From sequence record EU863408: DNA of 64,000 nt. One strand, 5' to 3'. This DNA is from Escherichia phage JSE. Position 1 is the stretch's first letter. Every line of letters begins with the position of its first letter. Positions 14,548-60,182 of the stretch are shown one piece after another. The notes under the pieces were generated by a model. It made no database searches. It was not told the origin of the DNA and saw only the letters and a list, made by a program, of their open reading frames with translations. The position numbers and the translations under genes are program-made.

Positions 14548-16599
14548 TTACATTTTAAATTTATCTGGCATTGCGTCTACAGATACCAGATCAGCGATAA
14601 GCTGACGTAGAGTTGCCTTATCTGCTTTCTTACGTTCGGTTTTAGCTTCGCTAATGAAGCTGGAGAAAGACAGGTCAGAAGCAGGTTTAACAACACCTTC
14701 ACGGATGAATGCATCACCGTCTGCGATCATCTCGCCAGATTCTTGTAATGCTGCCAGTTCATTTTTGTTCATAATATGTGCCTCAATGTAATAAGTTTCT
14801 TGTGAATCCGTCGATGCCGTAGCACGAGTTACCGTATCAAAGGATAACACAACACCGCGAGGAAGTAAAATCTCGCATTCTTTGTAAGCAAATGCTTTGT
14901 TACCTACTGGCAATACAGGGATGTTTTCCGCGCCAGCAATGGAGAAAGCAACATTAGCGCCACCTTCACCGCGAGAGCCAGCCATAGAATCAACACCAGC
15001 AACGGCACTAGCCACGTTTGCATTCCAGCCGCCAAAAATGTTAGGTGCAAGGGAAGTGCTCACATAGTTTTTAAAGTAAAACGCTTTTTGCTTACGTGCA
15101 GTTTCCCACATTTGCGACCGGAAGTCCATACCACGATACAGAATAGTACCCGGATCAAGTTTAACGCCATAGTTGGAGAAGGCATTATCCAGTGCATCGC
15201 ACATCTTGACCAATTCTTCTGGATCTGAGATTCCTTCAAACTCTTCCAGCTTACGGTCGGTTAGGAAGTTGTTCATATTGATGTATGCTGCATCGGCATA
15301 TTCGCTCAACACAAAACCTTCCGCGCCTGGCAGATCAAGATCAATATTTGCCATCATTTCACCCATGTTGCTAGCAATTGCTTCAAACATACCGGAAGCA
15401 ACATTACGTAGGGCATCGGTTTTAATCTGGGTGATATTACTACGCAGCATTTCAGCTTTTACATCTGCTGGCATAGACTGGTCTACTCGATCCATTGCCA
15501 GTGCGGTGATCTTGTTTTCGAATACTTCCTCGCTCATGATTTCTTTTAAGCGTTTGATTGATGCTGCGATAACTTCCGCAGACAACGGATCATATTGATC
15601 CTGAACTTTTACCAGTTCGCTTACTGCGTATTTTGCATCGGCTTCGCTTTCAAAAATAGTACGCATGAAACCATAGCGAGTGATAATATCACTTGTCCAG
15701 TCATTCAGAGAACGGGCGGTTGAACGTTCTAAGGCTTGACGATCAATCAGAGTATTAAACTGTTTCTTAGGTTCTGCTTCGGTGATATCTTCTTCCGGTT
15801 TAAGATTAATTTTTTCTGGATGATTCACATAGTCGCTGTTATAGGTCGCTTGAGTTTTCAGCATTTCTTCTTTAGTCAAACGAGATTTAGCCGCTACGCG
15901 TTGTTCCGCTTCCGCGTTTCGTTCTTCTTCTGACACAAGACTAGCCGCATACGCTTCATCTTTAGTCAGAGATTCACCAGTAGCCTTAGATACCCAGCGA
16001 TCACCTAAATCACTTTCTACTTTAGTGAACAAGGAATCATCAAGTTTAATCCCTTTAATCTTATCAATCGCCATACCGCGACGCTTGACAACAACTAAAG
16101 CGATCTTTTTGCTGGTCATTACTTCCTGCTGGAATACTTCAAACTTCGGTGTACGACGCACCAAACGCTCTATAACGCGCTTAACCAGTTCGGTCTTACC
16201 TTTCATGCGGGATACGTTAAAACGGAACATAACAGCGTCTAGTTGCGCTTTACGGGCTGTTTCCATAACCACATCAAAAGCACTTGACATAACTGCAATC
16301 GGGTTATCGCCTAGACCATTTTTAAGCTGTACAATACGACCGCTTTTGTTCATTTCGCACAGTACAACATGTGCGGTCTTGTCACCCATACGAATGATTT
16401 TAGGTGTTTTGTTGGTGAAGTTACAAAGACGGACAATCACATCTTTATCGCGTGTCTGTACTGCAAAAAGCTGTTTAGGATTCTGCTTAGGCTTTAAGCA
16501 CTGTACCGGGGCAATACTACCAAAGTTTTCTTCCTCTTCCGTCAACAGCCATTTCTCGAAAGATTCAATCATTAGATCGTCGATTTCTAAGTTAAACAT
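14548..16599 (-). CDS. alt: Alt ADP-ribosyltransferase (packaged RNA polymerase-modifying enzyme)
   Basis: 683 aa; C-terminal ART motifs YRG, YVSTS, ECEILLPRG; size and position as T4 alt. Confidence 0.85.
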   Translation of the reverse strand: MFNLEIDDLMIESFEKWLLTEEEENFGSIAPVQCLKPKQNPKQLFAVQTRDKDVIVRLCNFTNKTPKIIRMGDKTAHVVLCEMNKSGRIVQLKNGLGDNPIAVMSSAFDVVMETARKAQLDAVMFRFNVSRMKGKTELVKRVIERLVRRTPKFEVFQQEVMTSKKIALVVVKRRGMAIDKIKGIKLDDSLFTKVESDLGDRWVSKATGESLTKDEAYAASLVSEEERNAEAEQRVAAKSRLTKEEMLKTQATYNSDYVNHPEKINLKPEEDITEAEPKKQFNTLIDRQALERSTARSLNDWTSDIITRYGFMRTIFESEADAKYAVSELVKVQDQYDPLSAEVIAASIKRLKEIMSEEVFENKITALAMDRVDQSMPADVKAEMLRSNITQIKTDALRNVASGMFEAIASNMGEMMANIDLDLPGAEGFVLSEYADAAYINMNNFLTDRKLEEFEGISDPEELVKMCDALDNAFSNYGVKLDPGTILYRGMDFRSQMWETARKQKAFYFKNYVSTSLAPNIFGGWNANVASAVAGVDSMAGSRGEGGANVAFSIAGAENIPVLPVGNKAFAYKECEILLPRGVVLSFDTVTRATASTDSQETYYIEAHIMNKNELAALQESGEMIADGDAFIREGVVKPASDLSFSSFISEAKTERKKADKATLRQLIADLVSVDAMPDKFKM

Positions 16600-16644: not shown

Positions 16645-16668
16645 CGGGGCTTAACGCCCCTTTTTATT
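16645..16668. terminator. terminator-like hairpin
   Basis: GGGGC-TTAAC-GCCCC followed by TTTTTATT. Confidence 0.45.
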
Positions 16669-16879
16669 ATAATGCACCATCGAGCAATTGCTCTAAGGTG
16701 TATCCTGAATAGTCTTTTTCAATCAGGATATATTTTCCTACTCGTTTAATACAACCGCGCATTTCAACGTATTCTGCGTAGTTGATGGTACGAGTTGTTC
16801 CATCTTCCAGTAATGCAGTACCGATTTCGTTAATGCGGTCATAAGTTACGTCGGTAATGATGATTTCGATGTTAGCCAT
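16667..16879 (-). CDS. hypothetical protein (70 aa)
   Basis: ORF with GGAGTA RBS and PeSL-type promoter upstream. Confidence 0.45.
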   Translation of the reverse strand: MANIEIIITDVTYDRINEIGTALLEDGTTRTINYAEYVEMRGCIKRVGKYILIEKDYSGYTLEQLLDGAL

Positions 16880-16912
16880 TTGATACTCCTTAGTAGTTCG
16901 TTTCTGTATGGG

Positions 16913-16944
16913 TGTATTATGATATACACCCTCTGTTATGTCAA
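16913..16944 (-). promoter_or_regulatory. PeSL-type early promoter (variant)
   Basis: TTGACA, 17-nt spacer, CATAAT; inverted repeat GGGTGTAT..ATACACCC. Confidence 0.45.
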
Positions 16945-16950
16945 CAACTT

Positions 16951-17130
16951 TTAGAACATTTTTGAAATTAATTCTGCTTTGATTTCGCAGAGAACATCTA
17001 AAGATTTCTCGTCACCCGCTTTTGCTGCTTCTGCTTGCATTTTTGAAATGGCTTCAATCTCAGTGCAATTATAAGCCGCTTGAACTTTAGCGATTGCGAT
17101 GATTGCCGATTCGATGGTTAAGTGTTTCAT
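16951..17130 (-). CDS. small hypothetical protein (59 aa)
   Basis: Hand-translated ORF MKHLTIESAII..; GGAGAATCAAA RBS; not in the ORF track. Confidence 0.35.
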   Translation of the reverse strand: MKHLTIESAIIAIAKVQAAYNCTEIEAISKMQAEAAKAGDEKSLDVLCEIKAELISKMF

Positions 17131-17162
17131 GTTTGATTCTCCTTTCGTTTCGGTATGTGTGT

Positions 17163-17191
17163 ATTATAGGGGATCGATGATCCCCTGTCAA
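17163..17191 (-). promoter_or_regulatory. PeSL-type early promoter with palindromic spacer
   Basis: TTGACA, spacer GGGGATCATCGATCCCC, TATAAT. Confidence 0.6.
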
Positions 17192-17199
17192 CAACTTTT

Positions 17200-17718
17200 T
17201 TAGTTATTTTTTAATTGCTCATCTTGCAATAGGGCAATCACATGCTGGCGATGTTCTTCCGATTGAGGCACACCGAAAAAGTTTGTTTTGTAGAAATACT
17301 CTAATCGGTCTTCTCGTGTGCTCTCTTCCATCATGATCGCGGGTAGTCCGAGATTTCGGAAACGTCGCTTTTCTGCTGGCGTAAAATCACTGTAATACAA
17401 CATAGAATCATCATTACCAGCAATGCTAAACTCATCCTTCATAAAGGAGAATATTGCGTTTAAACGCTGTTTACCGTCCACGATTTCGATCTCATAGCGA
17501 GAGCCATCATCAATCTTAGCCATTGCGATAGCACCAACCGGAAAATCATTAATCAGGTTTTCGATAAACATACGTTTGTTTTCTGTGTCCCATACTAAAG
17601 GACGCTGATAATCTGGGTTCATGTTGATATAGCCATCTTCTAACCATGCATCATAAACAGAGATGACAAAGTTTTTAGTATTGGTATAGTAACGGCGTTT
17701 AGGCGTTAAACGGTTCAT
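17200..17718 (-). CDS. DUF262 (ParB-like NTPase) domain protein
   Basis: Motifs PDYQRPLVW, FPVG, IVDGKQRL typical of DUF262; start taken at MNRLT with GGAGAC RBS. Confidence 0.6.
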   Translation of the reverse strand: MNRLTPKRRYYTNTKNFVISVYDAWLEDGYINMNPDYQRPLVWDTENKRMFIENLINDFPVGAIAMAKIDDGSRYEIEIVDGKQRLNAIFSFMKDEFSIAGNDDSMLYYSDFTPAEKRRFRNLGLPAIMMEESTREDRLEYFYKTNFFGVPQSEEHRQHVIALLQDEQLKNN

Positions 17719-17719
17719 G

Positions 17720-18049
17720 TTATAGTCTCCTGAATGGATCATCACGTAAATCAATATCTTTTAAGAACTCATCCCATGAATGCCGGATATTGTTCTTAAT
17801 TCTCCAGATAAGCGCAGGGATTGAACGCTCTCCCATCTGGAAGTAAGGATCATATGATCCGTATGCCCAATATGCTACTACAATTCCACAATCAGCGCAA
17901 TAGTATTCTATTTCACTTGCTGGCGACCAAAGTCCATCAATATGATCGGTGATCTTGCTTTCGATGTTATGGCTATGACAATCAGGGCAACGGATGCAAT
18001 GACCTTGTTTATCGTAATTTGACGTTAGCGAATACTTAAACAATCTCAT
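17720..18049 (-). CDS. zinc-ribbon protein (109 aa)
   Basis: CxxC..H and CxxC pairs (CIRCPDCHSH, CADCG); translationally coupled to neighbours. Confidence 0.5.
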   Translation of the reverse strand: MRLFKYSLTSNYDKQGHCIRCPDCHSHNIESKITDHIDGLWSPASEIEYYCADCGIVVAYWAYGSYDPYFQMGERSIPALIWRIKNNIRHSWDEFLKDIDLRDDPFRRL

Positions 18050-18765
18050 TATAGATCCTTATTTGCTTCAAATACTGCCTTTGCGAATCCTCGCGGGGTA
18101 AGTGACCTTATAGTCTTTGTTTTCGTTCCTTTCCCGCCTAGCTTAGAATGCTGTTTACTGTACCCTTTATTAATCTGCAACGGTTTCTTTTCTGGCATTA
18201 TAAAGCCTTGTCCGGACCATAAGCAAGTCTTTTTCGGGTACATATCACGGGCGGCAATATACTCAGGAAACGTAGGATGCTTATCATCTTCCGGCAAATA
18301 ACCGCCATATTCCCACGGATGGAACATATAATCAGGCTTACGCCACATGCTAGAGATAACGCTTACAGGATTCTCTATCATGTAGGGAACTCCTAGCCAT
18401 TCACCCAAATAAGCGGTTATTTTAGCTGCCCTTACATCATGAACTTGAATCAATGGTCCTTGCTCTCGTTTCTTTCGTTCAAAGTGTGCAGCGCCACTAA
18501 CAGCTAAATTGGTGCACGGTGGGAATGCAAAGATAATATCCGGTTTCCCCCATTCAAGGTCCATTGCTCTTTCCAGCCAGTTCAAATCAATCCAGGTGTT
18601 TACATAGGTAATGTTTGGATGTTCAAATCTGGTATTATACTTTTTGTATGTACCGTGGTCGGCGTCATCCGCATTAAAGCAGACTACCTTATGACCTGCT
18701 TTAGCCCATTCTAGCCCCATTATCCCCGATCCGTCAAAGTTGCAGAATATTAATTTTTGTTTCAC
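18049..18765 (-). CDS. compact C5-cytosine methyltransferase-like protein (238 aa)
   Basis: Motif I-like FCNFDGSG, motif IV-like FPPC..SG, motif VI-like ENP; too short for a canonical target-recognition domain. Confidence 0.45.
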   Translation of the reverse strand: MKQKLIFCNFDGSGIMGLEWAKAGHKVVCFNADDADHGTYKKYNTRFEHPNITYVNTWIDLNWLERAMDLEWGKPDIIFAFPPCTNLAVSGAAHFERKKREQGPLIQVHDVRAAKITAYLGEWLGVPYMIENPVSVISSMWRKPDYMFHPWEYGGYLPEDDKHPTFPEYIAARDMYPKKTCLWSGQGFIMPEKKPLQINKGYSKQHSKLGGKGTKTKTIRSLTPRGFAKAVFEANKDL

Positions 18766-19013
18766 GCTGCCCCCATTGGTTTGATAGTAACAGAATCTAA
18801 AAGACCTTTGTTAGCCAGTTCGCGGCAAGTTTTCAGATCCGCAACTTCCCAGCCAGCCGCAATCAGGTTATCAATGAGGCTGTTAGCAACTTCTTCGCTC
18901 ATGAAAGAGCACTGTTTGCCGATGGTGTAGCGTACACGCTGTAATTTCAGTTTACGGAAGCCTTTAACGTTCAGGTCTTTAGCGATTTTCTTTGCGGTTT
19001 CGATGTTAGCCAT
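18762..19013 (-). CDS. hypothetical protein (83 aa), first gene of the DUF262 operon
   Basis: ORF; ATGA overlap with downstream gene; GGAGAATCAAA RBS. Confidence 0.45.
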   Translation of the reverse strand: MANIETAKKIAKDLNVKGFRKLKLQRVRYTIGKQCSFMSEEVANSLIDNLIAAGWEVADLKTCRELANKGLLDSVTIKPMGAA

Positions 19014-19053
19014 TGTTTGATTCTCCTAAGTGGTATCTCGTCTTGATGGTTGT

Positions 19054-19082
19054 ATTGTAGGGGAGTTATCCTCCCCTGTCAA
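19054..19082 (-). promoter_or_regulatory. PeSL-type early promoter
   Basis: TTGACA, palindromic spacer GGGGAGGATAACTCCCC, TACAAT. Confidence 0.55.
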
Positions 19083-19096
19083 CACTTTTTATAAAA

Positions 19097-19264
19097 TTAT
19101 TTGTTAATTTCTGGTGCGTTGCTAGGATAGTAACCTTCTTTAACTCCGAGATATTTCGCAACCATCCCTACAATCTTCTGTGCTACTACAATGTCAAATT
19201 TCAGATAATCTTCGCCGTGGGTTTCAATGATATATGCTTCACATGCTGCTTTAGTCTCGAACAT
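19097..19264 (-). CDS. small protein (55 aa), copy 1 of a duplicated gene
   Basis: MFETKAACEAYII..; about 85 percent nt identity to 22576-22743; not in the ORF track. Confidence 0.45.
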   Translation of the reverse strand: MFETKAACEAYIIETHGEDYLKFDIVVAQKIVGMVAKYLGVKEGYYPSNAPEINK

Positions 19265-19297
19265 TTTGATTCTCCTATTTCGTTTCGGTATGTGTGT

Positions 19298-19326
19298 ATT
19301 ATAGGGGATCGGTGATCCCCTGTCAA
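19298..19326 (-). promoter_or_regulatory. PeSL-type early promoter
   Basis: TTGACA, spacer GGGGATCACCGATCCCC, TATAAT. Confidence 0.6.
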
Positions 19327-19332
19327 CAACTT

Positions 19333-19644
19333 TTAGCGACGGCGACGATGTTTTTTGCGAGTTGCCTTTTTGTATGCTTTATATGCCTTTTTACCGTTTT
19401 TATATGCTTTTTTGGTATATGATTGATTTTTCTTATTGTTTTTGTATGTTTCCCGGTCAGTATTAATTTCGTTACATTCCACGAAACGGTGTCGATGTTC
19501 TTGTGGTATGATCAAACATTTATCATAATTAACCATTTCGTTTTTCGTTGTTTGTGGTTTCTTTGGTGTGTTGTTTGCACTAACAGACCCAGCAAAGAGA
19601 ATGAGTATAGCGGTCATTAACGCAAACATTGTTTTCTTAATCAT
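19333..19644 (-). CDS. secreted basic protein (103 aa)
   Basis: N-terminal signal peptide (..AGSVSA/NN); Lys/Arg-rich C-terminus. Confidence 0.5.
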   Translation of the reverse strand: MIKKTMFALMTAILILFAGSVSANNTPKKPQTTKNEMVNYDKCLIIPQEHRHRFVECNEINTDRETYKNNKKNQSYTKKAYKNGKKAYKAYKKATRKKHRRRR

Positions 19645-19702
19645 AATATTCTCCTTTAGTTTCTGCGGGAGTGTGAATATAACACTCCCTTAATATTTTG
19701 TA

Positions 19703-19984
19703 TTATTCGTGATTAGTTTCGATGTTGTGCATTTTGCACCAGTTCAGCCAATCGCCCAGATCTTGATAGTTAATGCTTTTATCTGCTGCCATCGTTTTTG
19801 TCTTGATACCCATATGTGCGTTATGAGTAAGCATTTTTACAGTGAACTCGATTTTATCGCCTTTAGCTTTAACATCAACCAGTTTGGTCCACTGGCTACC
19901 AGCACCGCGAATGTTCATACCAACGATGTTTCCGATGTATGCTTCTTTGTTTTTCAGGATTTCGGTTGCTTTGATGAATTTCAT
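19703..19984 (-). CDS. hypothetical protein (93 aa)
   Basis: ORF with RBS and upstream PeSL. Confidence 0.45.
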   Translation of the reverse strand: MKFIKATEILKNKEAYIGNIVGMNIRGAGSQWTKLVDVKAKGDKIEFTVKMLTHNAHMGIKTKTMAADKSINYQDLGDWLNWCKMHNIETNHE

Positions 19985-20017
19985 TTTTGATTCTCCAGTT
20001 CGTTTCGGTATGGGTGT

Positions 20018-20046
20018 ATTATGCTATGTTCTTACTTTGGTGTCAA
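20018..20046 (-). promoter_or_regulatory. sigma70-like early promoter
   Basis: TTGACA, 17 nt, CATAAT. Confidence 0.5.
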
Positions 20047-20055
20047 CAACTTTTT

Positions 20056-20325
20056 TTAGATATTTTCAGAAATAAATTTTAAAACTTGACGTAAATGTTT
20101 CTCATCTTTGATGGTAGCCGGAAGTTCTTCTTTTACTTCCTGTGCAAGATAGATATTTCCGTTCCAAGTGAAAGATCCGTCTTCGTTTACTCGATAGCTG
20201 AACATCCACTCGCAATCATTTTCGATTTCATATACACACAGAAGGGTGTAATCGTTAAAGCTATTGATTTCAAGGTCGAAGCCGTGACGTTTTGCAAAGT
20301 TGGTAGTGGTTTTAGTCAGTACCAT
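20056..20325 (-). CDS. hypothetical protein (89 aa)
   Basis: ORF with GGAGAATCAAA RBS. Confidence 0.45.
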   Translation of the reverse strand: MVLTKTTTNFAKRHGFDLEINSFNDYTLLCVYEIENDCEWMFSYRVNEDGSFTWNGNIYLAQEVKEELPATIKDEKHLRQVLKFISENI

Positions 20326-20364
20326 TGTTTGATTCTCCTAAGTGGTATCTCGTCTTGATGGGTG

Positions 20365-20393
20365 TATTATGCTATACACAGGATCTGGTGTCA
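20365..20393 (-). promoter_or_regulatory. sigma70-like early promoter
   Basis: TTGACA, 17 nt, CATAAT. Confidence 0.5.
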
Positions 20394-20416
20394 ATGCCTT
20401 TTTTAAAATTTTATGC

Positions 20417-20442
20417 AATAAAAAAGCCGACGCTAAGGTCGG
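20417..20442 (-). terminator. rho-independent terminator (minus strand)
   Basis: GCCGAC-loop-GTCGGC hairpin followed by T6 on the minus strand. Confidence 0.55.
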
Positions 20443-20454
20443 CTAATAAAATCA

Positions 20455-20759
20455 TTTAGACAAATAATCATTCAGTGCAATCCGGTCGGCGTATGCTGGT
20501 GTTACGTCAATCGCAATCACTTTAACGCGTGCTTTCTTGCGACCTGGGTTTTCTCGTAACCAGTGCTCATGACCGTGAACATTTTATACTGCGATGCTTC
20601 TTCGAAAGTACGGATCGGACAAGGGTAATCAGCGTAAAGGATCTCTAGGTCTTCGGTGATGTAAAAATATACATCATAATTACTGTTCTCTAGTTTAAGC
20701 AGAGACTTTCGGAACATTGGGAGATTTTCGCGGGTAAATTCAAAGATATTATCTTTCAT
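20455..20759 (-). pseudogene. HxHW-family small protein, frame broken at a T4 homopolymer (about 20581-20584)
   Basis: N-terminal 80-aa ORF; family C-terminus VHGHEHW..VKVIAIDVTPAYADRIA continues in another frame. Confidence 0.35.
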
Positions 20760-20783
20760 AGTATTATCCTCAATAGTTGGATG

Positions 20784-20806
20784 AAAAGGGGGGCTTAATG
20801 CCCCGT
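20784..20806 (-). terminator. terminator-like hairpin
   Basis: GGGGCATTAAGCCCC hairpin with a short T tract. Confidence 0.3.
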
Positions 20807-20809
20807 ATA

Positions 20810-21097
20810 TTAAAACAGTCCTTCCTGTACACCGTAGTAGAGTTCATCGCTGATAATTTCATTAATGCGACGGTGTGCATATTCCTGATTTGCGAAGTTG
20901 TCAGCAAGTTCTACTTTAGTTTCGCCATCATGAGTCCATTTAGTGATAACTTTACCATCGGCAAATTTGAAGTTGAACTCTTTAGCTACCGCATCGCGTA
21001 CCAGACGTGCAAACTTATTGTTGCGGATTGCATTGTCGGTTTCGTGTGCAGCGTGAGCGAATTTGTTAACTTTCAGAGTGATAGTAATGTATGCCAT
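20810..21097 (-). CDS. hypothetical protein (95 aa), paralog of 24231-24542
   Basis: Shared motif NAI...R.VR.A.AKEFN.K. Confidence 0.45.
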   Translation of the reverse strand: MAYITITLKVNKFAHAAHETDNAIRNNKFARLVRDAVAKEFNFKFADGKVITKWTHDGETKVELADNFANQEYAHRRINEIISDELYYGVQEGLF

Positions 21098-21143
21098 AAT
21101 TTGATTCTCCTAGTTAGAAAGTGTATCTCGTTTCGACGGGTGT

Positions 21144-21172
21144 ATTATGCTATACACCCGATCCATTGTCAA
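21144..21172 (-). promoter_or_regulatory. PeSL-type early promoter
   Basis: TTGACA, 17 nt, CATAAT; palindrome GGGTGTATAGCATAATACACCC. Confidence 0.5.
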
Positions 21173-21504
21173 CGCCTTTTTATAAAATAATTTTCGATAT
21201 CTTTATGATGTTTTTCTCGTGCTTGGTCTGCCTCGGCTGGCGATACGTTGGAAGCGATAATCTTCACTACTGTTGCACCTTTTTCGGTGTCCGACACCCA
21301 ATGATTATGGAAACCGCTATTATTAAACACTTGATAAGAAAATGATTTAATGTTAGGGAAATTATAAGTGTAATAACGTACCCTTAATTCTGAATCTACG
21401 TATAGATAGATCACCGCACCTAGATAGACCGTCTCACTCGTTCCGTCAACTAACAGTAGAGTATTTCGCAATTCTTCTAAATTGTCTTTTGTAAGAAAAA
21501 TCAT
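21169..21504 (-). CDS. HxHW-family small protein (111 aa)
   Basis: C-terminal FHNHWV..VVKIIASNVSPAEADQARE. Confidence 0.5.
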   Translation of the reverse strand: MIFLTKDNLEELRNTLLLVDGTSETVYLGAVIYLYVDSELRVRYYTYNFPNIKSFSYQVFNNSGFHNHWVSDTEKGATVVKIIASNVSPAEADQAREKHHKDIENYFIKRR

Positions 21505-21518
21505 AGTATAATCCTCAA

Positions 21519-21854
21519 TTAAACCAAATTAACTTTGGTGTTGTGGTGGTTTTCTCGTGCGTCGTCCGCTTCTTCCGGTGTCACGTTACGAGCGACGACA
21601 ATAACACTTGCTGCCTCTCCGTGATGATAGATCTCTACCCAATGGTTATGATTTGCGAATCCGTGTTTTATTGCGTAAGCGAACGGCTTAGACGTCCAGT
21701 AGTAACTATAATATCGTACATTTAGATCGCTATCAATGTACAAATATGTGCTGTCGTTTACATTGCCACTAACAACAAAAACAAGACAATTGCGAAGATC
21801 TGACAATATTTTGTCTGTCAATTTTATAATGTGACTGTTCATAATTAACACCAC
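21519..21854 (-). CDS. HxHW-family small protein (111 aa), tandem paralog
   Basis: C-terminal NHNHWV..VIVVARNVTPEEADDARE; VRYY.Y motif shared with 21169-21504. Confidence 0.5.
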   Translation of the reverse strand: MVLIMNSHIIKLTDKILSDLRNCLVFVVSGNVNDSTYLYIDSDLNVRYYSYYWTSKPFAYAIKHGFANHNHWVEIYHHGEAASVIVVARNVTPEEADDARENHHNTKVNLV

Positions 21855-22060
21855 TCAAGAGTTTTTGAAAACACATCTATCCATTGTTGAGTATATGCGG
21901 TTTCTTTCCATGACACAATACCAGTCGAATAATGGTTTTTGTTTCCAGAAAAGGACGGGCATTTTGATGCATCTTCCATCATCTTTTCGGCGAACTCTGG
22001 TTCGTATACCCGCAGAATCTGTTGATATGCTTTGTATTCTTTAAATTTGCTCATAATCAT
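21845..22060 (-). CDS. hypothetical protein (71 aa)
   Basis: ORF only. Confidence 0.35.
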   Translation of the reverse strand: MIMSKFKEYKAYQQILRVYEPEFAEKMMEDASKCPSFSGNKNHYSTGIVSWKETAYTQQWIDVFSKTLEWC

Positions 22061-22319
22061 TCACTACCTTATCAGCTTCTTTTGTTGTTTTTACATCAAC
22101 TGCGATAACCCGTAAAGGTTCGTCATGGTTCCACCAATGATCGTGAATATCGGCTTGTGATTTATCACCAAAGGAATCACGAATATCATTTTTACATTTA
22201 TAGCTAATGTGACCGTCATAGTCAACATAAAGGTAATTATCGAAAATCGGCGTTTTTAAGATCATACCGAAAAATCTTTCTTTGTGTGTCTTATCCAGTG
22301 TTGCAGTAATTCGCATCAT
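22041..22319 (-). CDS. HxHW-family small protein (92 aa)
   Basis: C-terminal IHDHWW..VIAVDVKTTKEAD. Confidence 0.45.
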   Translation of the reverse strand: MMRITATLDKTHKERFFGMILKTPIFDNYLYVDYDGHISYKCKNDIRDSFGDKSQADIHDHWWNHDEPLRVIAVDVKTTKEADKVVNDYEQI

Positions 22320-22331
22320 AATATATTCCTC

Positions 22332-22511
22332 TTAGAAAGGGATGGTCATTTCTTGAGCTTGTACATTCTCGTTAGGATTAAACTTCATCCAACCGATATT
22401 GTCTACCAGCATATGCACATTTTTATCATATCCTACGTGGGTAGTCAATACTGTATGTGCTTTACCTTCAACGATGATTTCCATGTACTTCTGAACTTCG
22501 ATAGCTTTCAT
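22332..22511 (-). CDS. small hypothetical protein (59 aa)
   Basis: Hand-translated ORF MKAIEVQKYMEII..; GGAGAATCAAA RBS. Confidence 0.35.
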   Translation of the reverse strand: MKAIEVQKYMEIIVEGKAHTVLTTHVGYDKNVHMLVDNIGWMKFNPNENVQAQEMTIPF

Positions 22512-22537
22512 TTTGATTCTCCGTTTGTTGTCTTGAT

Positions 22538-22572
22538 GGGAGTATCTTACTACTCCCTTTAATCATTGTCAA
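22538..22572 (-). promoter_or_regulatory. PeSL-type early promoter
   Basis: TTGACA, 17 nt, TAAGAT within palindrome GGGAGTAGTAAGATACTCCC. Confidence 0.5.
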
Positions 22573-22575
22573 CTA

Positions 22576-22743
22576 TTATTTGTTAATTTCCGGTGCGTTG
22601 CTTGGATAGTAGCCTTCTTTAACACCCAGATATTTTGCAACCATTCCGGTGATCTTCTGTGCTACTACGATATCGAATTTCAGGTAGTCTTCACCGTGGT
22701 TTGCTACAATGTATGCTTCGCATTCTGCTTTAGTCTGGAACAT
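22576..22743 (-). CDS. small protein (55 aa), copy 2 of the duplicated gene
   Basis: MFQTKAECEAYIV..; start at the ATG with GGAGAATCAAA RBS rather than the longer track ORF. Confidence 0.45.
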   Translation of the reverse strand: MFQTKAECEAYIVANHGEDYLKFDIVVAQKITGMVAKYLGVKEGYYPSNAPEINK

Positions 22744-22777
22744 TTTTGATTCTCCTATATCTCGTTGGTATGTGTGC

Positions 22778-22806
22778 ATTATAGGGGATCACCGATCCCC
22801 TGTCAA
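22778..22806 (-). promoter_or_regulatory. PeSL-type early promoter
   Basis: TTGACA, spacer GGGGATCGGTGATCCCC, TATAAT. Confidence 0.6.
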
Positions 22807-22811
22807 CAACT

Positions 22812-23106
22812 TTATAATGCTTTATATGCGTATTTCATAAATTTGTCTGCCACTTCATTGGCATGTTCAGATTCTACGCCTGATTCGAGAACAATAGCTA
22901 GGTCGGTTTCGTCATTCCCGCCGTACCAATGATTTGATGTTCGATTTTTTTCAATTGGAAATTGGTCACTTTTATCTGTGCGACAAAATACATCTAAATG
23001 CTCATCGATGTAAAAGATCCAATCTTCATAAAGAATAACGGGTATTAGCAAGATTTTTATTGCCTTCAACGAAAGGTTCGGCTACAAACAAATTAGTATG
23101 TTCCAT
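22812..23106 (-). pseudogene. HxHW-family small protein, frame broken at a T5 homopolymer (23054-23058)
   Basis: ATG at 23104-23106 with GAGGAAA RBS opens a 26-codon frame that joins the track ORF (SNHWYGG..AIVLESGV) only after a 1-nt correction. Confidence 0.3.
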
Positions 23107-23122
23107 AGTAATTTCCTCAAAA

Positions 23123-23314
23123 TTATACAGCTTCGTAAACTTCCCAATGTCCAACACCAGCACGCTTAACGAAAAGGTTTTCTTTGATGTTATTCATAAA
23201 CGTCTGGATGGATTTAATGCGGTTTGAAGGTTTCCATTCTTCGTTGGAATTGCGGCGATACATAATAACATTACCAGTTCGCTTATATTCAGCAACCATT
23301 TTAAGACAACACAT
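23123..23314 (-). CDS. hypothetical protein (63 aa), ends in GHW
   Basis: ORF; possible truncated family member. Confidence 0.35.
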   Translation of the reverse strand: MCCLKMVAEYKRTGNVIMYRRNSNEEWKPSNRIKSIQTFMNNIKENLFVKRAGVGHWEVYEAV

Positions 23315-23370
23315 AATATTATCCTCAATTTGTGGGAGAGTATTACCCCTCCCGATGTTGTTATATTACA

Positions 23371-23691
23371 TTACACAAAATGGCGTGTCAATGCTTCTTT
23401 TGCGGTTCCGCTAAGACTTTCGATCTCGCCTGGCATAACATCAACCGCCAGAACTTCTACAACATCCTCGGACCCTAACCAGTGAGTATGGCCTTTGTAG
23501 AACTTGATAACCAGACTACCTTCCTCGTCCCATTTAACGCTATCGCTAGCCCACCACACATCACCGTCGATAAAGTTGATGTAAAGCACACTACGCCACA
23601 TTGAATTAATTACTTTCAATACTGCGCCTTTCATCTCTTCCACGGTATGGTCTTCCATTTTGAAGACCTCACCTACCTGAACTTTTGCCAT
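23371..23691 (-). CDS. HxHW-family small protein (106 aa from MAKVQV)
   Basis: C-terminal KGHTHW..VEVLAVDVMPGEIE; start placed 2 nt after the upstream stop. Confidence 0.45.
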   Translation of the reverse strand: MAKVQVGEVFKMEDHTVEEMKGAVLKVINSMWRSVLYINFIDGDVWWASDSVKWDEEGSLVIKFYKGHTHWLGSEDVVEVLAVDVMPGEIESLSGTAKEALTRHFV

Positions 23692-23692
23692 G

Positions 23693-23959
23693 TTACATGC
23701 TCCGAATATGTTTAGCTGCATCTTCCAGTTCGTCGATAGTGACACTGTGTGCCAGTAAGTGTACTGGTTGTGGTTCTTCACCTTCCATAGTATTGATCAG
23801 ATGACCGTTTCCTGGGTGGAATGTATCGTTGCCGTTCCAAATAGCATACACATCATCTTCTGTTACGTAGATAATAAGTCCAATCGGTGATTCTGGTAAT
23901 TGAAAAATTTTACCCACTGCATCTTTGCGATTGTTTACGATATCTTTTACTGTCTTCAT
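23693..23959 (-). CDS. hypothetical protein (88 aa), possible divergent family member
   Basis: ORF; weak resemblance (GNGHLI..VHLLAHSVTIDELEDA). Confidence 0.4.
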   Translation of the reverse strand: MKTVKDIVNNRKDAVGKIFQLPESPIGLIIYVTEDDVYAIWNGNDTFHPGNGHLINTMEGEEPQPVHLLAHSVTIDELEDAAKHIRSM

Positions 23960-23978
23960 TTAGTTACCTCTCGTTAAA

Positions 23979-24158
23979 TTACATCACAATCACGCCAGCC
24001 GTTGAAAGTTGATGTTTCAACTGAGCATTTTCTGCTACTGTCAAATCAATGATTTCTTGTGACGCTGCAATCATATAGCCATTGGTGATATTGTTTTGCA
24101 TCAGTTCAATGGTTTCTTCGTTGTAGCGGATTTTAGCGATGATTTCGTTGAAGTTCAT
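23979..24158 (-). CDS. small hypothetical protein (59 aa)
   Basis: Hand-translated ORF MNFNEIIAKIRY..; GGAGAATCAAA RBS. Confidence 0.35.
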   Translation of the reverse strand: MNFNEIIAKIRYNEETIELMQNNITNGYMIAASQEIIDLTVAENAQLKHQLSTAGVIVM

Positions 24159-24192
24159 GTTTGATTCTCCTAGTTCGTTTCGGTATGTGTGT

Positions 24193-24222
24193 ATTATAGG
24201 GGAGTTTAACCTCCCCTGTCAA
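24193..24222 (-). promoter_or_regulatory. PeSL-type early promoter
   Basis: TTGACA, spacer GGGGAGGTTAAACTCCCC, TATAAT. Confidence 0.55.
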
Positions 24223-24230
24223 CAACTTTT

Positions 24231-24542
24231 TTAAAGTTTTTCCATGATAACGGTCATAATTACATCTTCTGCGCGAGCGGTCAGATTATCAGCGTCAGCA
24301 TGTGGGCGGTTGGTTGTTACAGAGATAACACCGTTGCGCACTGGTTTGATATTGATATCAAGATGATCCGCGAAACGTTCGCCAGTTACAGAATGAATTT
24401 TGGTGTTAAATTCTTTTGCCAGTGCCTTGCGAACTTCACGAATCAGGATAGCGTTTTTCAGTTGGTTCTCCGCGCTCATGGTCTTCTGGGTGTTCATGGT
24501 TCCGTCGAAGTCAATCATTGGCAGCGTTACGATGTATTTCAT
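24231..24542 (-). CDS. hypothetical protein (103 aa), paralog of 20810-21097
   Basis: Shared motif NAI.IREVRKALAKEFN.K. Confidence 0.45.
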   Translation of the reverse strand: MKYIVTLPMIDFDGTMNTQKTMSAENQLKNAILIREVRKALAKEFNTKIHSVTGERFADHLDINIKPVRNGVISVTTNRPHADADNLTARAEDVIMTVIMEKL

Positions 24543-24587
24543 TTTTGATTCTCCGTTTAAGAAAGTGTGTTTCGTTTTGATGTGTGT

Positions 24588-24616
24588 AGTATAGGGGATA
24601 CGTGATCCCCTGTCAA
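24588..24616 (-). promoter_or_regulatory. PeSL-type early promoter
   Basis: TTGACA, spacer GGGGATCACGTATCCCC, TATACT. Confidence 0.55.
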
Positions 24617-24629
24617 CAACTTTTTTGAA

Positions 24630-24974
24630 TTATTTTTTCATGAGCTTAATGGCTTCTTCCATAGCCAGCACATTTCGATAGTTAGGGTATCGTGTTAGAT
24701 CGTCATACATTCGCTTAAGGGTGGAAACTTCCTCAAACTCTGGGTTTTCTAGATACAGTTGAACAAATTGTTTCTCTACCATCTCGGCTTTTAGCTTGTC
24801 TGCTTGTTCCTGTTCATATGATTTCGTTGGACCCAACACCAACAAAATGATAAAGGTGATCAACGGGCTAATGATCAATGATAGGATAACATAACCGATA
24901 ACGCTACGGTTTAAACGGCTTGCGTACATGCCTACCAGGAAAACAAAAAGGATATAGATAAACAGAAAGAACAT
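24630..24974 (-). CDS. membrane protein (114 aa)
   Basis: Two N-terminal hydrophobic helices. Confidence 0.5.
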   Translation of the reverse strand: MFFLFIYILFVFLVGMYASRLNRSVIGYVILSLIISPLITFIILLVLGPTKSYEQEQADKLKAEMVEKQFVQLYLENPEFEEVSTLKRMYDDLTRYPNYRNVLAMEEAIKLMKK

Positions 24975-32761: not shown

Positions 32762-32796
32762 CTTGATACTCCTTAGTAAGTTAGTTTCGTTTCGAT

Positions 32797-32830
32797 GGGG
32801 TATCTTACTACCCCCGTTTCAGGCTGTCAA
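32797..32830 (-). promoter_or_regulatory. PeSL-type early promoter
   Basis: TTGACA, 17 nt, TAAGAT within palindrome GGGGTAGTAAGATACCCC. Confidence 0.5.
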
Positions 32831-33049
32831 CTACTTTTTAATGACAAGTTCGAATTTTGCTACCTTACGTCCTCGTTTATTGAAAGCAACCCACGGACGG
32901 TTTTCAATGTAGAACAATTCTTCGCCAATAATGAATACTGGCTGATTGTAAAGGCGACCCATCAGGTCACGCTGGCGAATGGTAGTAGATTCGTATACTT
33001 CGCCTACTACAAAGTGTTTGCTGATAGAGTCGGTGCAAGTAAATTTCAT
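32831..33049 (-). CDS. hypothetical protein (72 aa)
   Basis: ORF with RBS. Confidence 0.4.
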   Translation of the reverse strand: MKFTCTDSISKHFVVGEVYESTTIRQRDLMGRLYNQPVFIIGEELFYIENRPWVAFNKRGRKVAKFELVIKK

Positions 33050-33076
33050 TTTGATTCTCCTGTGTTTCGTTTCGAT

Positions 33077-33112
33077 GGGGGTATCTTACTACCCCCCGCT
33101 ATTCAGTGTCAA
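33077..33112 (-). promoter_or_regulatory. PeSL-type early promoter
   Basis: TTGACA, 17 nt, TAAGAT within a GC palindrome. Confidence 0.5.
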
Positions 33113-33119
33113 CTACTTT

Positions 33120-33338
33120 TTACTTGTTGTATTCATTCCACCATTGAGTGAGCTTATCAATTATTTTTGTGTTTCTATCCAACTTATCCCACCGTTTTCG
33201 AGGGTTTATCAACCGGAATAGGTAAGGTGTACTTGTTAAGTGAACTCGGTCACTGTAGTGATTGATGTACTGCTTTTCAATTCTAAGTTTCATCTTTTTA
33301 CGATGAAAATATGCAATGACTTGTTCTTCTGTTTCCAT
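33120..33338 (-). CDS. hypothetical protein (72 aa)
   Basis: ORF only. Confidence 0.4.
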   Translation of the reverse strand: METEEQVIAYFHRKKMKLRIEKQYINHYSDRVHLTSTPYLFRLINPRKRWDKLDRNTKIIDKLTQWWNEYNK

Positions 33339-33362
33339 ATGTTCCTCCGTTTCGATGTGCGT

Positions 33363-33391
33363 ATTATGCTATGGTAAGATCCGATTGTCAA
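33363..33391 (-). promoter_or_regulatory. sigma70-like early promoter
   Basis: TTGACA, 17 nt, CATAAT. Confidence 0.45.
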
Positions 33392-33439
33392 CACCCAATA
33401 ACAAAAAAAGTCGCCACTATGGGCGACTTTGAACAAACA

Positions 33440-35964: not shown

Positions 35965-35995
35965 AATAAAATCCTCACTTGTTTTTGATGGTTGT

Positions 35996-36024
35996 ATTAT
36001 AGCGGGGATTTCTCCCCGCGTCAA
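35996..36024 (-). promoter_or_regulatory. PeSL-type early promoter
   Basis: TTGACG, spacer CGGGGAGAAATCCCCGC, TATAAT. Confidence 0.5.
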
Positions 36025-36032
36025 CACTTATT

Positions 36033-40483: not shown

Positions 40484-40498
40484 AATATAAATCTCCTA

Positions 40499-40828: not shown

Positions 40829-40859
40829 AATATAATCCTCTCTTTGTTTCGATGTGTGT

Positions 40860-40887
40860 ATTATACATTACCACATAAGCATGTCAA
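40860..40887 (-). promoter_or_regulatory. sigma70-like early promoter
   Basis: TTGACA, about 16 nt, TATAAT. Confidence 0.45.
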
Positions 40888-40949
40888 CACCTTTTTCATA
40901 AATTTTTAGGCAATAAAAAAGCCTCCCCGAAGGAAGGCTTTAAAATTCA

Positions 40950-58666: not shown

Positions 58667-58700
58667 AATATATTCCTCAGTGTTTTGTCTTGATGGGAGT

Positions 58701-58729
58701 ATCTTACTACTCCCTTAATCCGGTGTCAA
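58701..58729 (-). promoter_or_regulatory. PeSL-type early promoter
   Basis: TTGACA, 17 nt, TAAGAT within palindrome GGGAGTAGTAAGATACTCCC. Confidence 0.5.
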
Positions 58730-58737
58730 CTACTTTT

Positions 58738-58893
58738 TTAAATTTCTTCTACAGTAAAATCTTCAATGTTGTTGTGCTCGGCGAACGTTGCAAGACCAGC
58801 ATTCCATGCATCATCCTCAGAGAAGAATACACCGTAACGTTCATATCCTTTAGCGCCTTCAAATTTAACCATTAATTTGTGAGTATGTTTCAT
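58738..58893 (-). CDS. small hypothetical protein (about 51 aa from MKHTHK)
   Basis: ORF-track frame trimmed to the ATG with GGAGAATCAAA RBS. Confidence 0.35.
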   Translation of the reverse strand: MKHTHKLMVKFEGAKGYERYGVFFSEDDAWNAGLATFAEHNNIEDFTVEEI

Positions 58894-58924
58894 TTTGATT
58901 CTCCTTCGTTGTCTTGATGAGTTT

Positions 58925-58953
58925 AGTATAGGGGATCGCCGATCCCCTGTCAA
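58925..58953 (-). promoter_or_regulatory. PeSL-type early promoter
   Basis: TTGACA, spacer GGGGATCGGCGATCCCC, TATACT. Confidence 0.55.
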
Positions 58954-58963
58954 CAACTATTTT

Positions 58964-59176
58964 TTAATTTTTACCCGCTCGTGCATTAATACGCATTTTC
59001 TGCATAGCCATGATCTGGCTTACTGCTTCTTCTTTACGTTCTTGCGTGATAACGTGACCAGATTCCGCAAACTCTCCCGCAACTTCTTCTACGATCTCGC
59101 GAACTTGAGAACGTCCAAAGATGCGGTTTCCTTCGTAGCTCATAAATTCTGTTACTACTTGCTCGATAGATTTCAT
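58964..59176 (-). CDS. hypothetical protein (about 70 aa from MKSIEQ)
   Basis: ORF-track frame trimmed to the ATG with GGAGAATCAC RBS. Confidence 0.4.
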   Translation of the reverse strand: MKSIEQVVTEFMSYEGNRIFGRSQVREIVEEVAGEFAESGHVITQERKEEAVSQIMAMQKMRINARAGKN

Positions 59177-59205
59177 GTGATTCTCCTTTCGTTTGGTATG
59201 GGAGT

Positions 59206-59234
59206 ATAATACTACTCCCATTTCTTTACGTCAA
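59206..59234 (-). promoter_or_regulatory. PeSL-type early promoter
   Basis: TTGACG, 17 nt, TATTAT within palindrome GGGAGTAGTATTATACTCCC. Confidence 0.45.
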
Positions 59235-59237
59235 CAA

Positions 59238-59400
59238 CTATTTTAAATTATTTTCGACCTTCACCCATTCCGCGTATTCTTGCGCGGCTACTTTCGGATT
59301 TAGGCCGTCTTCGTACATTGCTTCAAGTAATTCTTCGTCGGTGGGCTTATACCCTAGATAAGCCTCCACCTGATTTTTCCAAATTTTATACCAGTTCATA
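59238..59400 (-). CDS. small hypothetical protein (about 54 aa from MNWYK)
   Basis: ORF-track frame trimmed to an internal ATG. Confidence 0.3.
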
Positions 59401-59403
59401 TTA

Positions 59404-59676
59404 TCACCAGTCAAGAGCGCGTGTCTCTGCGTCTTCCCATGCTTGATCCATAACAGCCTTGAAAACATATTCTAGAGTATCATCTTTAGAGAATCCGAAG
59501 ACTTTAGACGGAATATCTTCAATTGCTACTCCAGCAACTTCTGCATTACGCGCTTGGCAATAATGCAACTCTAAGTTATCGAGATAGCGACCGCCTAATT
59601 TCTCCATATCATCCCAGCATTTCCAGTAACCTACTTTATTTGCAATTACTAACACTTTGCTGTTTTCGTTGCTCAT
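59404..59676 (-). CDS. hypothetical protein (about 90 aa from MSNENSK)
   Basis: ORF-track frame trimmed to the ATG with GGAGAATCAAAG RBS. Confidence 0.4.
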   Translation of the reverse strand: MSNENSKVLVIANKVGYWKCWDDMEKLGGRYLDNLELHYCQARNAEVAGVAIEDIPSKVFGFSKDDTLEYVFKAVMDQAWEDAETRALDW

Positions 59677-59707
59677 CTTTGATTCTCCTTTTGTTTGGTA
59701 TGTGTGT

Positions 59708-59736
59708 ATTATGCGAGTCTGGATTCGTGAAGTCAA
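59708..59736 (-). promoter_or_regulatory. sigma70-like early promoter
   Basis: TTGACT, 17 nt, CATAAT. Confidence 0.45.
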
Positions 59737-59750
59737 CAACTTTTTAAAAT

Positions 59751-59786
59751 AAAAAAGCCGACCACAAGGATCGGCTTAATAATCAG
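59751..59786 (-). terminator. rho-independent terminator (minus strand)
   Basis: GCCGATCC-loop-GTGGTCGGC hairpin followed by TTTTTTATTTT on the minus strand. Confidence 0.65.
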
Positions 59787-60182
59787 TTACTTACTAAATT
59801 TCTTTTTGGCTTCGTCTACCGCATGAGATGCCAGTACCGCAGCCGCATGTGCACTTTTATCTGTGTTGCAGAGAACGCCCAGATAAACATCACGCCAAAG
59901 TTTAATCATCTCGTAGATCATATCAATATCATTTTCTTGTTTGTTGGCGATGCTATTCGTCGTTATCTGGTAAGGTAACGGCTTGATCTGTACTGGTTCC
60001 GCCATCGGGCTAATCGGTTTCGGATCAGTCATAATAGGTGCTGTTGTGGGTGGTGTTTTCCATACACCATTATTCCACGGTTTAATCGTTGTGTCGTAAA
60101 GTTTATAAGGATTTTTGTCTGGGTCAACCATCCATGCATGATGAGTACCCAAACCATTTGAAGTGATGCGTCGTTCAGTCAT
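59787..60182 (-). CDS. hypothetical protein (131 aa)
   Basis: ORF only. Confidence 0.45.
   Translation of the reverse strand: MTERRITSNGLGTHHAWMVDPDKNPYKLYDTTIKPWNNGVWKTPPTTAPIMTDPKPISPMAEPVQIKPLPYQITTNSIANKQENDIDMIYEMIKLWRDVYLGVLCNTDKSAHAAAVLASHAVDEAKKKFSK

Follow-up and report, generated by a model that had tools for sequence, protein, structure and literature searches.

Promoter-early stem-loop units in the alt-to-ligase region of Escherichia phage JSE, probable counterparts of the PeSLs of phage RB49

Genomic Context and Promoter Family

A stretch of 64,000 nucleotides (nt) from Escherichia phage JSE (sequence record EU863408), hereafter the window, was studied with respect to a repeated unit in which a sigma-70-type promoter is combined with a stem-loop in front of small open reading frames (ORFs). 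Eleven of the units lie in the interval 16900–24620. The gene alt (RB49p184) is located on one side of this interval, at 14548–16599, and an HNH gene with the DNA ligase gene gp30 (RB49p212/213) on the other, at 24982–26950. The flanks are collinear with phage RB49 at about 98% identity; therefore, the interval represents the ORF185–211 hyperplastic region of RB49, which extends from alt to the ligase (gene 30). We consider it very probable that the units are the promoter-early stem-loop (PeSL) elements of RB49-group T4-type phages, situated in the hyperplastic region between alt and the ligase of a Krischvirus.

A preliminary description, made from the sequence alone, had counted about 20 copies on the minus strand of the window, 11 of them in the interval, and had noted their recurrence at 32.8–33.4, 36.0, 40.9 and 58.7–59.7 kb. 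A profile built from the visible copies was searched against both strands of the window with nhmmer (E ≤ 1.5e-5) and bore out these figures, giving exactly 20 copies, all on the minus strand, with the next best match at E = 0.11. Named by the first base of the −35 box, the interval copies are 24616, 24222, 22806, 22572, 21172, 20394, 20046, 19326, 19082, 17191 and 16944, and the nine others, found at the places described, are 32830, 33112, 33391, 36024, 40887, 58729, 58953, 59234 and 59736. The strict pattern TTGACA-N17-YATAAT matches the window nine times, always on the minus strand, versus 0.09 matches expected from dinucleotide shuffles, and none of the 100 shuffles reached nine. In a sigma-70 scan independent of the profile, ten of the interval copies were the ten top matches of the interval, with 11 or 12 of 12 consensus positions; copy 22572 scored 10/12, also on the minus strand.

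The unit begins with an A-rich stretch, in which the upstream gene usually has its stop codon, and continues with a near-consensus sigma-70 promoter. Next come a GC-rich hairpin, whose 5′ arm is a G-run and whose 3′ arm is a C-run, an A/C-rich leader of about 20–40 nt and, last, an ATG preceded by a strong Shine-Dalgarno sequence. The A-rich run (AAAAAGTTG, AAAAGTAG or similar) lies immediately 5′ of 19 of the 20 copies, and the upstream stop codon is located in it or, once, within the −35 box. In the latter case the TGA of ORF 21169–21504 is part of the hexamer TTGACA (21167–21172), which represents an extreme packing; the TAG stop of ORF 32831–33049 (32831–32833) directly adjoins the next −35 box. 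All 20 copies end with a Shine-Dalgarno sequence and a downstream start codon, and an ORF of 51–272 amino acids (aa) begins with its ATG 53–75 nt after each copy.

The finer details given in the preliminary description hold to different degrees. The −35 box is exactly TTGACA in every interval copy, but in only 17 of the 20 copies of the window. The 17-nt spacer occurs in 10 of the 11 interval copies, copy 24222 having 18 nt. The −10 box is TATAAT or CATAAT in eight of the eleven, the remainder carrying TATACT, TACAAT or TAAGAT. The ribosome-binding site (RBS) GGAGAATCAAA is exact in 10 of the 11, and its 13 occurrences in the window all stand behind these promoters, although not every copy has it. 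The leader ACACACATACCGAAACGAA, which had been called conserved, is exact in three copies only and was over-generalised for the others. Pairs of units have 70–90 nt in common at 80–95% identity, all in direct orientation.

Identity with the PeSLs of RB49

PeSLs were defined in phages RB49 and phi1, with 51 and 52 copies, by Arbiol, Comeau, Kutateladze, Adamia and Krisch in 2010 (PMC2839356). There, the element comprises a sigma-70 consensus, an AT-rich 5′ stretch with an upstream stop and a stem-loop that is often polyG followed by polyC, and it ends with the Shine-Dalgarno sequence and start codon of an ORFan. In the window, positions 24543–24629 are 100% identical to RB49 PeSL211/210 and positions 22744–22811 are 100% identical to PeSL206/205, while one element is a close variant of PeSL192/191. 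The interpretation of the units as PeSL cassettes is thus supported both by the locus and by the two identical elements. The copies beyond the interval form clusters at the equivalents of RB49p225–228, p231–233, p239 and p262–268. The interval as a whole matches 62 phage records, essentially all of them Krischvirus/RB49-like coliphages, at about 93–96% identity.

Both identical elements have been tested in vivo (PMC2839356): a PeSL206/205-lacZ fusion gave about 13,000 Miller units, and the stem-loop of PeSL211/210 lowered lacZ expression as strongly as rrnB T1. In the literature accessible to the search, no published transcript mapping was found for RB49-like phages. Since the locus is that of RB49 ORF185–211 and two elements are base-for-base RB49 PeSLs, the finding is an ordinary, correct rediscovery, in a sister genome, of elements already described and tested in 2010 at the same locus. 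Conceptually, nothing is gained from finding them confirmed in a further Krischvirus. The likeness to the RB49 and phi1 elements covers genus, locus, architecture, the main stem placements and the two identical copies, and the density is also similar (20 per 64 kb here, 51–52 per genome of about 164 kb there). The differences are confined to details of cargo and alleles: the place of ORFan192 is taken by another ORFan, which is preceded by a more degenerate element, gene content departs from that of RB49 at some points, and two cargo genes of the window are frameshifted.

Stem-Loop Placement and Stability

For folding, 44 nt counted from the −35 box were taken from each copy, and random 44-mers from the same strand of the window served as the control. 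Fifteen of the 20 copies fold at ≤ −10 kcal/mol versus 8.5% of the random 44-mers. The spacer had been described as usually being a perfect GC-rich palindrome, which was over-generalised: a spacer hairpin is present in only 6 of the 11 interval copies (8 of 20 in the window), and of these six just three form perfect 7+7 palindromes such as GGGGATCnnnGATCCCC. In another three interval copies, and in seven copies of the window, the stem extends across the −10 box, as in GGGTGTATAGCATAATACACCC and GGGAGTAGTAAGATACTCCC. Five copies lack a strong internal stem. Four of them (59736, 40887, 33391 and 20394) have instead a canonical intrinsic terminator, consisting of a GC stem followed by T6–7, 15–35 nt 5′ of the −35 box, and copy 20046 is the only one of the 20 without any stem-loop. 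In total, a stem-loop accompanies 19 of the 20 promoters: eight copies have it in the spacer, in seven it spans the −10 box, and in four it is the upstream terminator. This rule, together with the substitution of a terminator for a missing embedded stem, fits a model in which the units act as insulators, and the presence of a stem-loop somewhere at nearly every promoter supports such a function.

Five stem placements are listed in the original work (PMC2839356): in the spacer, across the −10 box, across the −35 box, upstream of the −35 box and downstream of the −10 box, the first two being the commonest. The preliminary description had recognised a real element, and its wording covered only one of these placements. 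At 23333–23391, 5′ of ORF 23123–23314, a weaker promoter-like sequence TTGACA-N17-TAATAT is followed by a stem-loop GGGAG...CTCCC and the RBS GAGGATAATATTATG. This site resembles the published subclass with the stem downstream of the −10 box; its profile score is only E = 0.21. A role of Dam methylation at GATC was considered and dropped. The 20 promoter cores contain 12 GATC sites versus 3.2 expected, with a genome-wide observed/expected ratio of 1.04, and the excess in the cores is due to copies of one palindrome family.

Comparison with Relatives and Footprints of Exchange

The alt-ligase region was compared with that of eight relatives, namely RB49, G37-3, Brandy, UPWr_E1, TB34, JK32, KMB43 and kaaroe. 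Each of them carries 9–12 PeSL copies on the same strand. The preliminary description had made its reading depend on the conservation of the palindromic spacers in related genomes, and the palindromes are kept in all eight. It had also proposed that the gene content between the cassettes be compared. This content differs among the relatives, and each of the 62 database matches is split into 5–8 pieces, with at least 80% of the interval covered in only one record.

Several differences carry the signature of an exchange between two PeSLs. ORF 16951–17130 is absent in G37-3 and JK32; the end points of the corresponding deletion (16920–17144) lie inside two PeSLs, and a 22-nt overlap common to both flanks falls in the conserved −10/leader part. 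In six relatives, extra genes are flanked by two copies, both of which match the single PeSL at 20347–20443, with an overlap of about 97 nt. Within the window, a PeSL+ORF unit of 241 nt is duplicated (19096–19333 and 22575–22813, 85.5% identity). Copy 19082 is a mosaic, its 5′ half being similar to copy 24222 and its leader 98% identical to that of copy 20394.

Altogether, 17 recurrent homology breakpoints were found between the window and the eight relatives, all 17 at gene junctions. Nine of them fall within the 14% of the sequence that is PeSL (p = 2e-4 versus a uniform null). This enrichment depends on the null; a null allowing any gene junction is fairer and shows none. Events away from PeSLs share just 4–16 nt, for example at 18749–18764 and 17715–17718, or at 23695/23957 in RB49 with a 6-nt overlap. 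The breakpoints of these indels and replacements are located at 17715–17718, 18749–18764, 21836–21840, 23120–23125, 23312, 23695, 23957 and 24995, and an alternative RBS context, TTGAGGAnnAnnAnTATG, occurs at several of the junctions concerned. PeSL-mediated exchange clearly happens, and here it explains roughly half of the events, a share in line with the “10 of 14” of the original paper (PMC2839356).

Proposed Mechanism and Alternative Explanations

The anatomy of the units suggests the following mechanism. Unmodified host RNA polymerase would start early transcription at each unit, as shown for identical sequence in RB49. If transcription starts about 7 nt past the −10 box, as expected, the transcript of a unit would not wholly contain an embedded stem of either type. 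The hairpin, lying upstream of or across its own start, would therefore be transcribed whole only in read-through RNA arriving from upstream. There it may attenuate or terminate transcription, and each unit would represent a compact terminator-then-promoter insulator. Through identity to the tested sequences, the units can be taken as strong promoters for the unmodified host polymerase and the spacer-type stem as able to stop upstream transcription; termination by stems other than the one identical spacer hairpin is presumed from their structure.

Since the units are 80–95% identical and directly oriented, homologous recombination of the phage could cross over between them, and such a crossover would delete, duplicate or swap the genes in between. 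The length of homology between units exceeds the fewer than 50 bp cited as enough for T4 recombination (PMC2839356). The footprints of exchange are visible in the comparison described above; the process itself would correspond to that backed in the literature by polymerase chain reaction of mini-circles. ORFan192 and ORFan210 are recoverable as mini-circles, and mini-circles with chimeric PeSLs have been detected in RB49 and phi1 (PMC2839356). PeSLs are among the few concrete proposals for accessory-gene shuffling in large lytic phages without an integrase.

A number of observations weigh against this picture of insulation and exchange. In a generic scan of the transcribed strand for intrinsic terminators, no embedded PeSL hairpin passes. 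After the spacer hairpins there is only UAUAAU, and the stems across the −10 box lack a U-tract; hence, one spacer-type stem has documented termination, and for the others the sequence does not predict it. Covariation in the spacer stems is formally weak, with 85.7% of cells paired and three pairs changed on both sides over 14 variants, and a partner slid by one column scores about equally because of the G and C runs. About one third of the GGGTGTAT-type copies in the relatives have a decayed or lost 5′ arm. With regard to exchange, 8 of 11 junctions with a PeSL are broken versus 9 of 15 without one (Fisher p = 0.68). Only three of about nine variable cargo genes lie directly behind a PeSL; those located elsewhere include 23693–23959, 23123–23314, 21169–21842 and 24630–24974. 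In favour of the stems, on the other hand, they are conserved in the eight relatives with variable loops and one clear compensated variant, GGGTGTAT/ATACACCC versus GGGGATAT/ATATCCCC.

The junction figures suit the possibility that the cassettes are regulatory only. Indels would then arise at any gene boundary through microhomology or illegitimate recombination, selection would remove those that break genes, and PeSLs would seem linked to plasticity only because they fill many boundaries among dispensable genes. We regard this explanation as somewhat doubtful but deserving serious consideration. It accommodates the restriction of all breakpoints to gene junctions, eight or nine of which have no PeSL, as well as the short common sequences at the non-PeSL events and the position of most variable genes away from PeSLs. 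It does not account for the 22-nt and ~97-nt overlaps, the duplicated unit and the mosaic copy, nor for the chimeric mini-circles found experimentally. The comparison on which it draws is also small, with one reference against eight relatives and 26 junctions, most of them already used, and with two degenerate elements counted as PeSLs the ratio becomes 10 of 13 versus 7 of 13 (p = 0.41). In a sample of this size, a preference of breakage for PeSLs over other junctions cannot be shown. The suggestion that the cassettes shuffle novel genes is accordingly retained as far as the PeSL-to-PeSL signatures and the varying gene content are concerned, and not as a preference over other junctions. About 60 Krischvirus genomes now permit a real test of recombination at PeSLs against that at other junctions.

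The GGGG...CCCC repeat might also be a double-stranded DNA site for a dimeric protein, either a phage or host regulator shutting off early promoters or a recombination factor directing exchanges, rather than an RNA hairpin. The palindrome GGGGATC-NNN-GATCCCC varies at all three central positions and at none of its 14 arm positions, which is an operator pattern, and the authors of PMC2839356 themselves speculate on a specific DNA-binding protein. The stem sequences, however, differ among copies (GGGGATC, GGGGAG, CGGGGA, GGGAGTA, GGGTGTAT, GGGGGGTA), their register relative to the promoter varies, and four copies have an upstream canonical terminator in place of the stem. What is kept is therefore the presence of a stem-loop beside the promoter, not its sequence or position. 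The constant polarity, a G-run and then a C-run, would not be needed in a symmetric DNA site, and in a reporter assay lacking phage proteins the stem-loop by itself terminated transcription (PMC2839356). A dimer-binding site is thus quite improbable. An autonomous element resembling miniature inverted-repeat transposable elements, spreading by its own transposition independently of genes, could be invoked for the many similar copies over four regions of the window and for the related elements in other phage lineages, but it is hardly tenable, as all 20 copies have one orientation, are intergenic and abut the upstream stop and the downstream RBS and ATG exactly, the sequences show neither terminal inverted repeats at the unit ends nor target-site duplications, and scans of the cargo proteins gave no transposase or integrase.

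Similar Systems and Occurrence beyond Krischvirus

The PeSL concept was extended to T4/PST and KVP40/nt-1 by Comeau, Arbiol and Krisch in 2014 (PMC4122927). The elements of those phages are likewise composites of a promoter and a stem-loop in hyperplastic regions and are linked to ORFan indels. They differ in consensus, with the promoters TTTACW...TAYWAT and TTGYVH...TAWWAT and the stems A3–4G3...C3T3–4 or AGNA...TCNT (PMC4122927), whereas the window has the RB49 type. Integron cassettes, an analogy drawn by the authors of PMC2839356 themselves, have in common with PeSL units short structured repeats that bound single promoterless ORFs, excision as circles and a hyperplastic array. Integrons, however, need the IntI tyrosine recombinase and one shared promoter (Pc), while the units of the window each carry their own promoter and their exchange is attributed to general homologous recombination. 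No recombinase family, and no integrase, was found among the cargo proteins scanned, and the repeats are promoters and not attC-like, so the system does not qualify as an integron. The morons of lambdoid phages (Hendrix et al. 2000, via PMC2839356) are also single accessory genes with their own promoter and terminator. Unlike PeSL units, which are all co-oriented, they are often antisense, their flanks are not conserved repeats and no role in mobility is supposed for them.

Jumbo phages of the RaK2/GAP32/CBB type resemble the window in having clustered consensus sigma-70 promoters before short hypothetical early genes. For CBB, RpoD-like promoters with UP-like elements were reported by Buttimer et al. 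2017 (PMC5259590), where a stem-loop is not mentioned. In the sampled loci of such phages, the density is much lower than in the window and no cargo is common to both. An exact search with the class-A core pattern also matched non-Krischvirus contigs of IMG/VR. Four of these contigs, three of 357–366 kb and one of 174 kb, are distantly related, at about 71% nucleotide identity, to the Salmonella jumbo phages SE_PL, 7t3 and Munch and to the RaK2 group. Their units show both stem placements, the start region (ACACACATCAAC, CCATCGACA; ...CCATC(A/G)A...) resembles the Krischvirus leader, and the units match the Krischvirus profile with E = 1e-8 to 5e-5. Of the cultured Salmonella phage SE_PL, 17 kb were examined and contained one clear copy (L032:6589–6650, E = 2.7e-9). 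The hosts named for SE_PL and its IMG/VR relatives of about 350 kb are Salmonella and Klebsiella. The promoter-hairpin design occurs in jumbo phages, for which the literature consulted describes only RpoD-like promoters.

Two further matches (GGGGAGAGATTCTCCCC; L012:499–537 and L013:4377–4415) belong to T4-like cyanomyophage contigs, S-PM2-like, in the gp44/45 region. In bacterial genomes, two contigs of metagenome-assembled genomes match, versus about 0.3 estimated by chance in 596 Gb, and these are possibly chance matches. Between the window and the sampled jumbo-phage and cyanophage loci, no common cargo was found except T4 core genes in the cyanophages; therefore, convergence or an ancient design is likelier than a recent exchange of cassettes across lineages. 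A linker module spanning lineages, either recognised by a dedicated factor or exchanged among unrelated phages co-infecting enterobacteria, seems unlikely. If real, it would be a common socket for the swapping of early genes among very different phages.

Feature Table, Cargo Genes and Minor Observations

Table 1. Promoter-stem-loop units and associated features (window positions unless a contig is given).
Feature	Position	Strand	Details
PeSL, spacer hairpin (TTGACA GGGGATCACGTATCCCC TATACT)	24543..24629	-	drives 103-aa ORF 24231–24542; −10.1 kcal/mol
PeSL, spacer hairpin, 18-nt spacer (GGGGAGGTTAAACTCCCC)	24159..24230	-	−13.9 kcal/mol; 12/12 consensus; heads ORFs 23979–24158, 23693–23959, 23371–23691
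PeSL, spacer hairpin (GGGGATCGGTGATCCCC, TATAAT)	22744..22811	-	drives 55-aa ORF 22576–22743
PeSL, stem across −10 (GGGAGTAGTAAGATACTCCC)	22512..22575	-	−12.2 kcal/mol; heads a run of five ORFs, 22332–22511 down to 21169–21504
PeSL, stem across −10 (GGGTGTATAGCATAATACACCC)	21098..21186	-	−15.5 kcal/mol; drives 20810–21097 and frameshifted ORF 20450–20759
PeSL, weak internal stem (−5.7 kcal/mol)	20326..20449	-	drives 89-aa ORF 20056–20325; canonical terminator AGCCGACCTTAGCGTCGGC + T6 at 20425–20444 precedes promoter 20394
PeSL promoter without stem-loop (0.0 kcal/mol)	19985..20055	-	drives 19703–19984
Degenerate PeSL-like element, stem GGGAGTGT/ACACTCCC, poor −35, RBS GGAGAATATT	19645..19702	-	5′ of ORFan 19333–19644; position equivalent to RB49 PeSL193/192
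PeSL, spacer hairpin (GGGGATCACCGATCCCC)	19265..19332	-	drives 55-aa ORF 19097–19264
PeSL, spacer hairpin (GGGGAGGATAACTCCCC, TACAAT)	19014..19096	-	mosaic; heads 18762–19013, methyltransferase, Zn-ribbon ORF, GmrSD_N ORF
PeSL, spacer hairpin (GGGGATCATCGATCCCC)	17131..17199	-	drives 59-aa ORF 16951–17130
PeSL, stem across −10 (GGGTGTATATCATAATACACCC)	16880..16950	-	drives 70-aa ORF 16667–16879; −12.1 kcal/mol
Three PeSLs (32830, 33112, 33391)	32762..33435	-	ORFan cluster corresponding to RB49p225–228; two stems across −10, third PeSL with canonical terminator upstream
PeSL, spacer hairpin (TTGACG CGGGGAGAAATCCCCGC TATAAT)	35965..36032	-	directly downstream of nrdA; −15.1 kcal/mol
PeSL, 16-nt spacer, upstream canonical terminator (AAGCCTTCC...GGAGGCTT + T6)	40829..40940	-	downstream of gene 32
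Four PeSLs (58729, 58953, 59234, 59736)	58667..59790	-	ORFan cluster corresponding to RB49p262–268
Cargo, ~25 small ORFs (55–238 aa)	16667..24974	-	almost all of unknown function
Jumbo-phage units, TTGACA GGGGA-N7-TCCCC TATAAT or stem across −10	L017:3975–4024; L018:1458–1531, 2192–2239; L023:1973–2024; L019:626–671		

The features are listed in Table 1. Assignable families among the cargo are a DNA methyltransferase (18049–18765; phrog_757, no Pfam match), a Zn-ribbon protein (17720–18049) and a GmrSD_N/DUF262 protein (17200–17718). Paralogue pairs are represented by phrog_7474, phrog_9345 and a pair of 55-aa proteins. The operon behind copy 19082, which comprises an 83-aa ORF, the methyltransferase, the Zn-ribbon protein and the stand-alone GmrSD_N/DUF262 protein (the latter three at 17200–18765, minus strand), may be a DNA-modification or anti-restriction module.

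The ORFan 19333–19644 (minus strand, 103 aa) has a signal-peptide-like N-terminus and a Lys/Arg-rich tail. It occupies the slot of RB49 ORFan192, likewise a signal-peptide protein. None of the eight relatives has the ORFan of the window. It gave no tblastn match among 50,697 phage records and belongs to no Pfam or PHROG family, with only a sub-threshold NCBIfam match. Among 5.8 billion sequences, just two near-identical proteins were found, both from Logan contigs (L009, L010) that are 98% identical to window 19043–20394 and have the same neighbours of the ORFan. These contigs end at PeSLs, at window positions 20394/20391 and 19043/19060; short-read assemblies appear to break at the PeSL repeats.

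Compared with RB49, two cargo genes carry a frameshift. The RB49p206 homologue (ORF 22812–23106) is affected at about 23040–23045 (CCC versus CC in RB49, +1) and the RB49p197 homologue (ORF 20450–20759) at about 20580–20585 (A5 versus A6 in RB49, −1). These homopolymer frameshifts are either sequencing errors or the decay of dispensable genes. Between frd and gene 32 (40484–40949), the only ORF is one of 109 aa behind copy 40887, a homologue of RB49p239. Judging from ORF sizes, the 486-aa endonuclease RB49p240, present there in RB49, appears to be absent from the window.

In the whole window, GGCC is strongly under-represented (31 observed versus 76 expected, 0.41), and AGCT (0.65) and GCGC (0.71) are low as well, while GATC is not avoided (1.04). 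The low GGCC, AGCT and GCGC values suggest avoidance of restriction sites.

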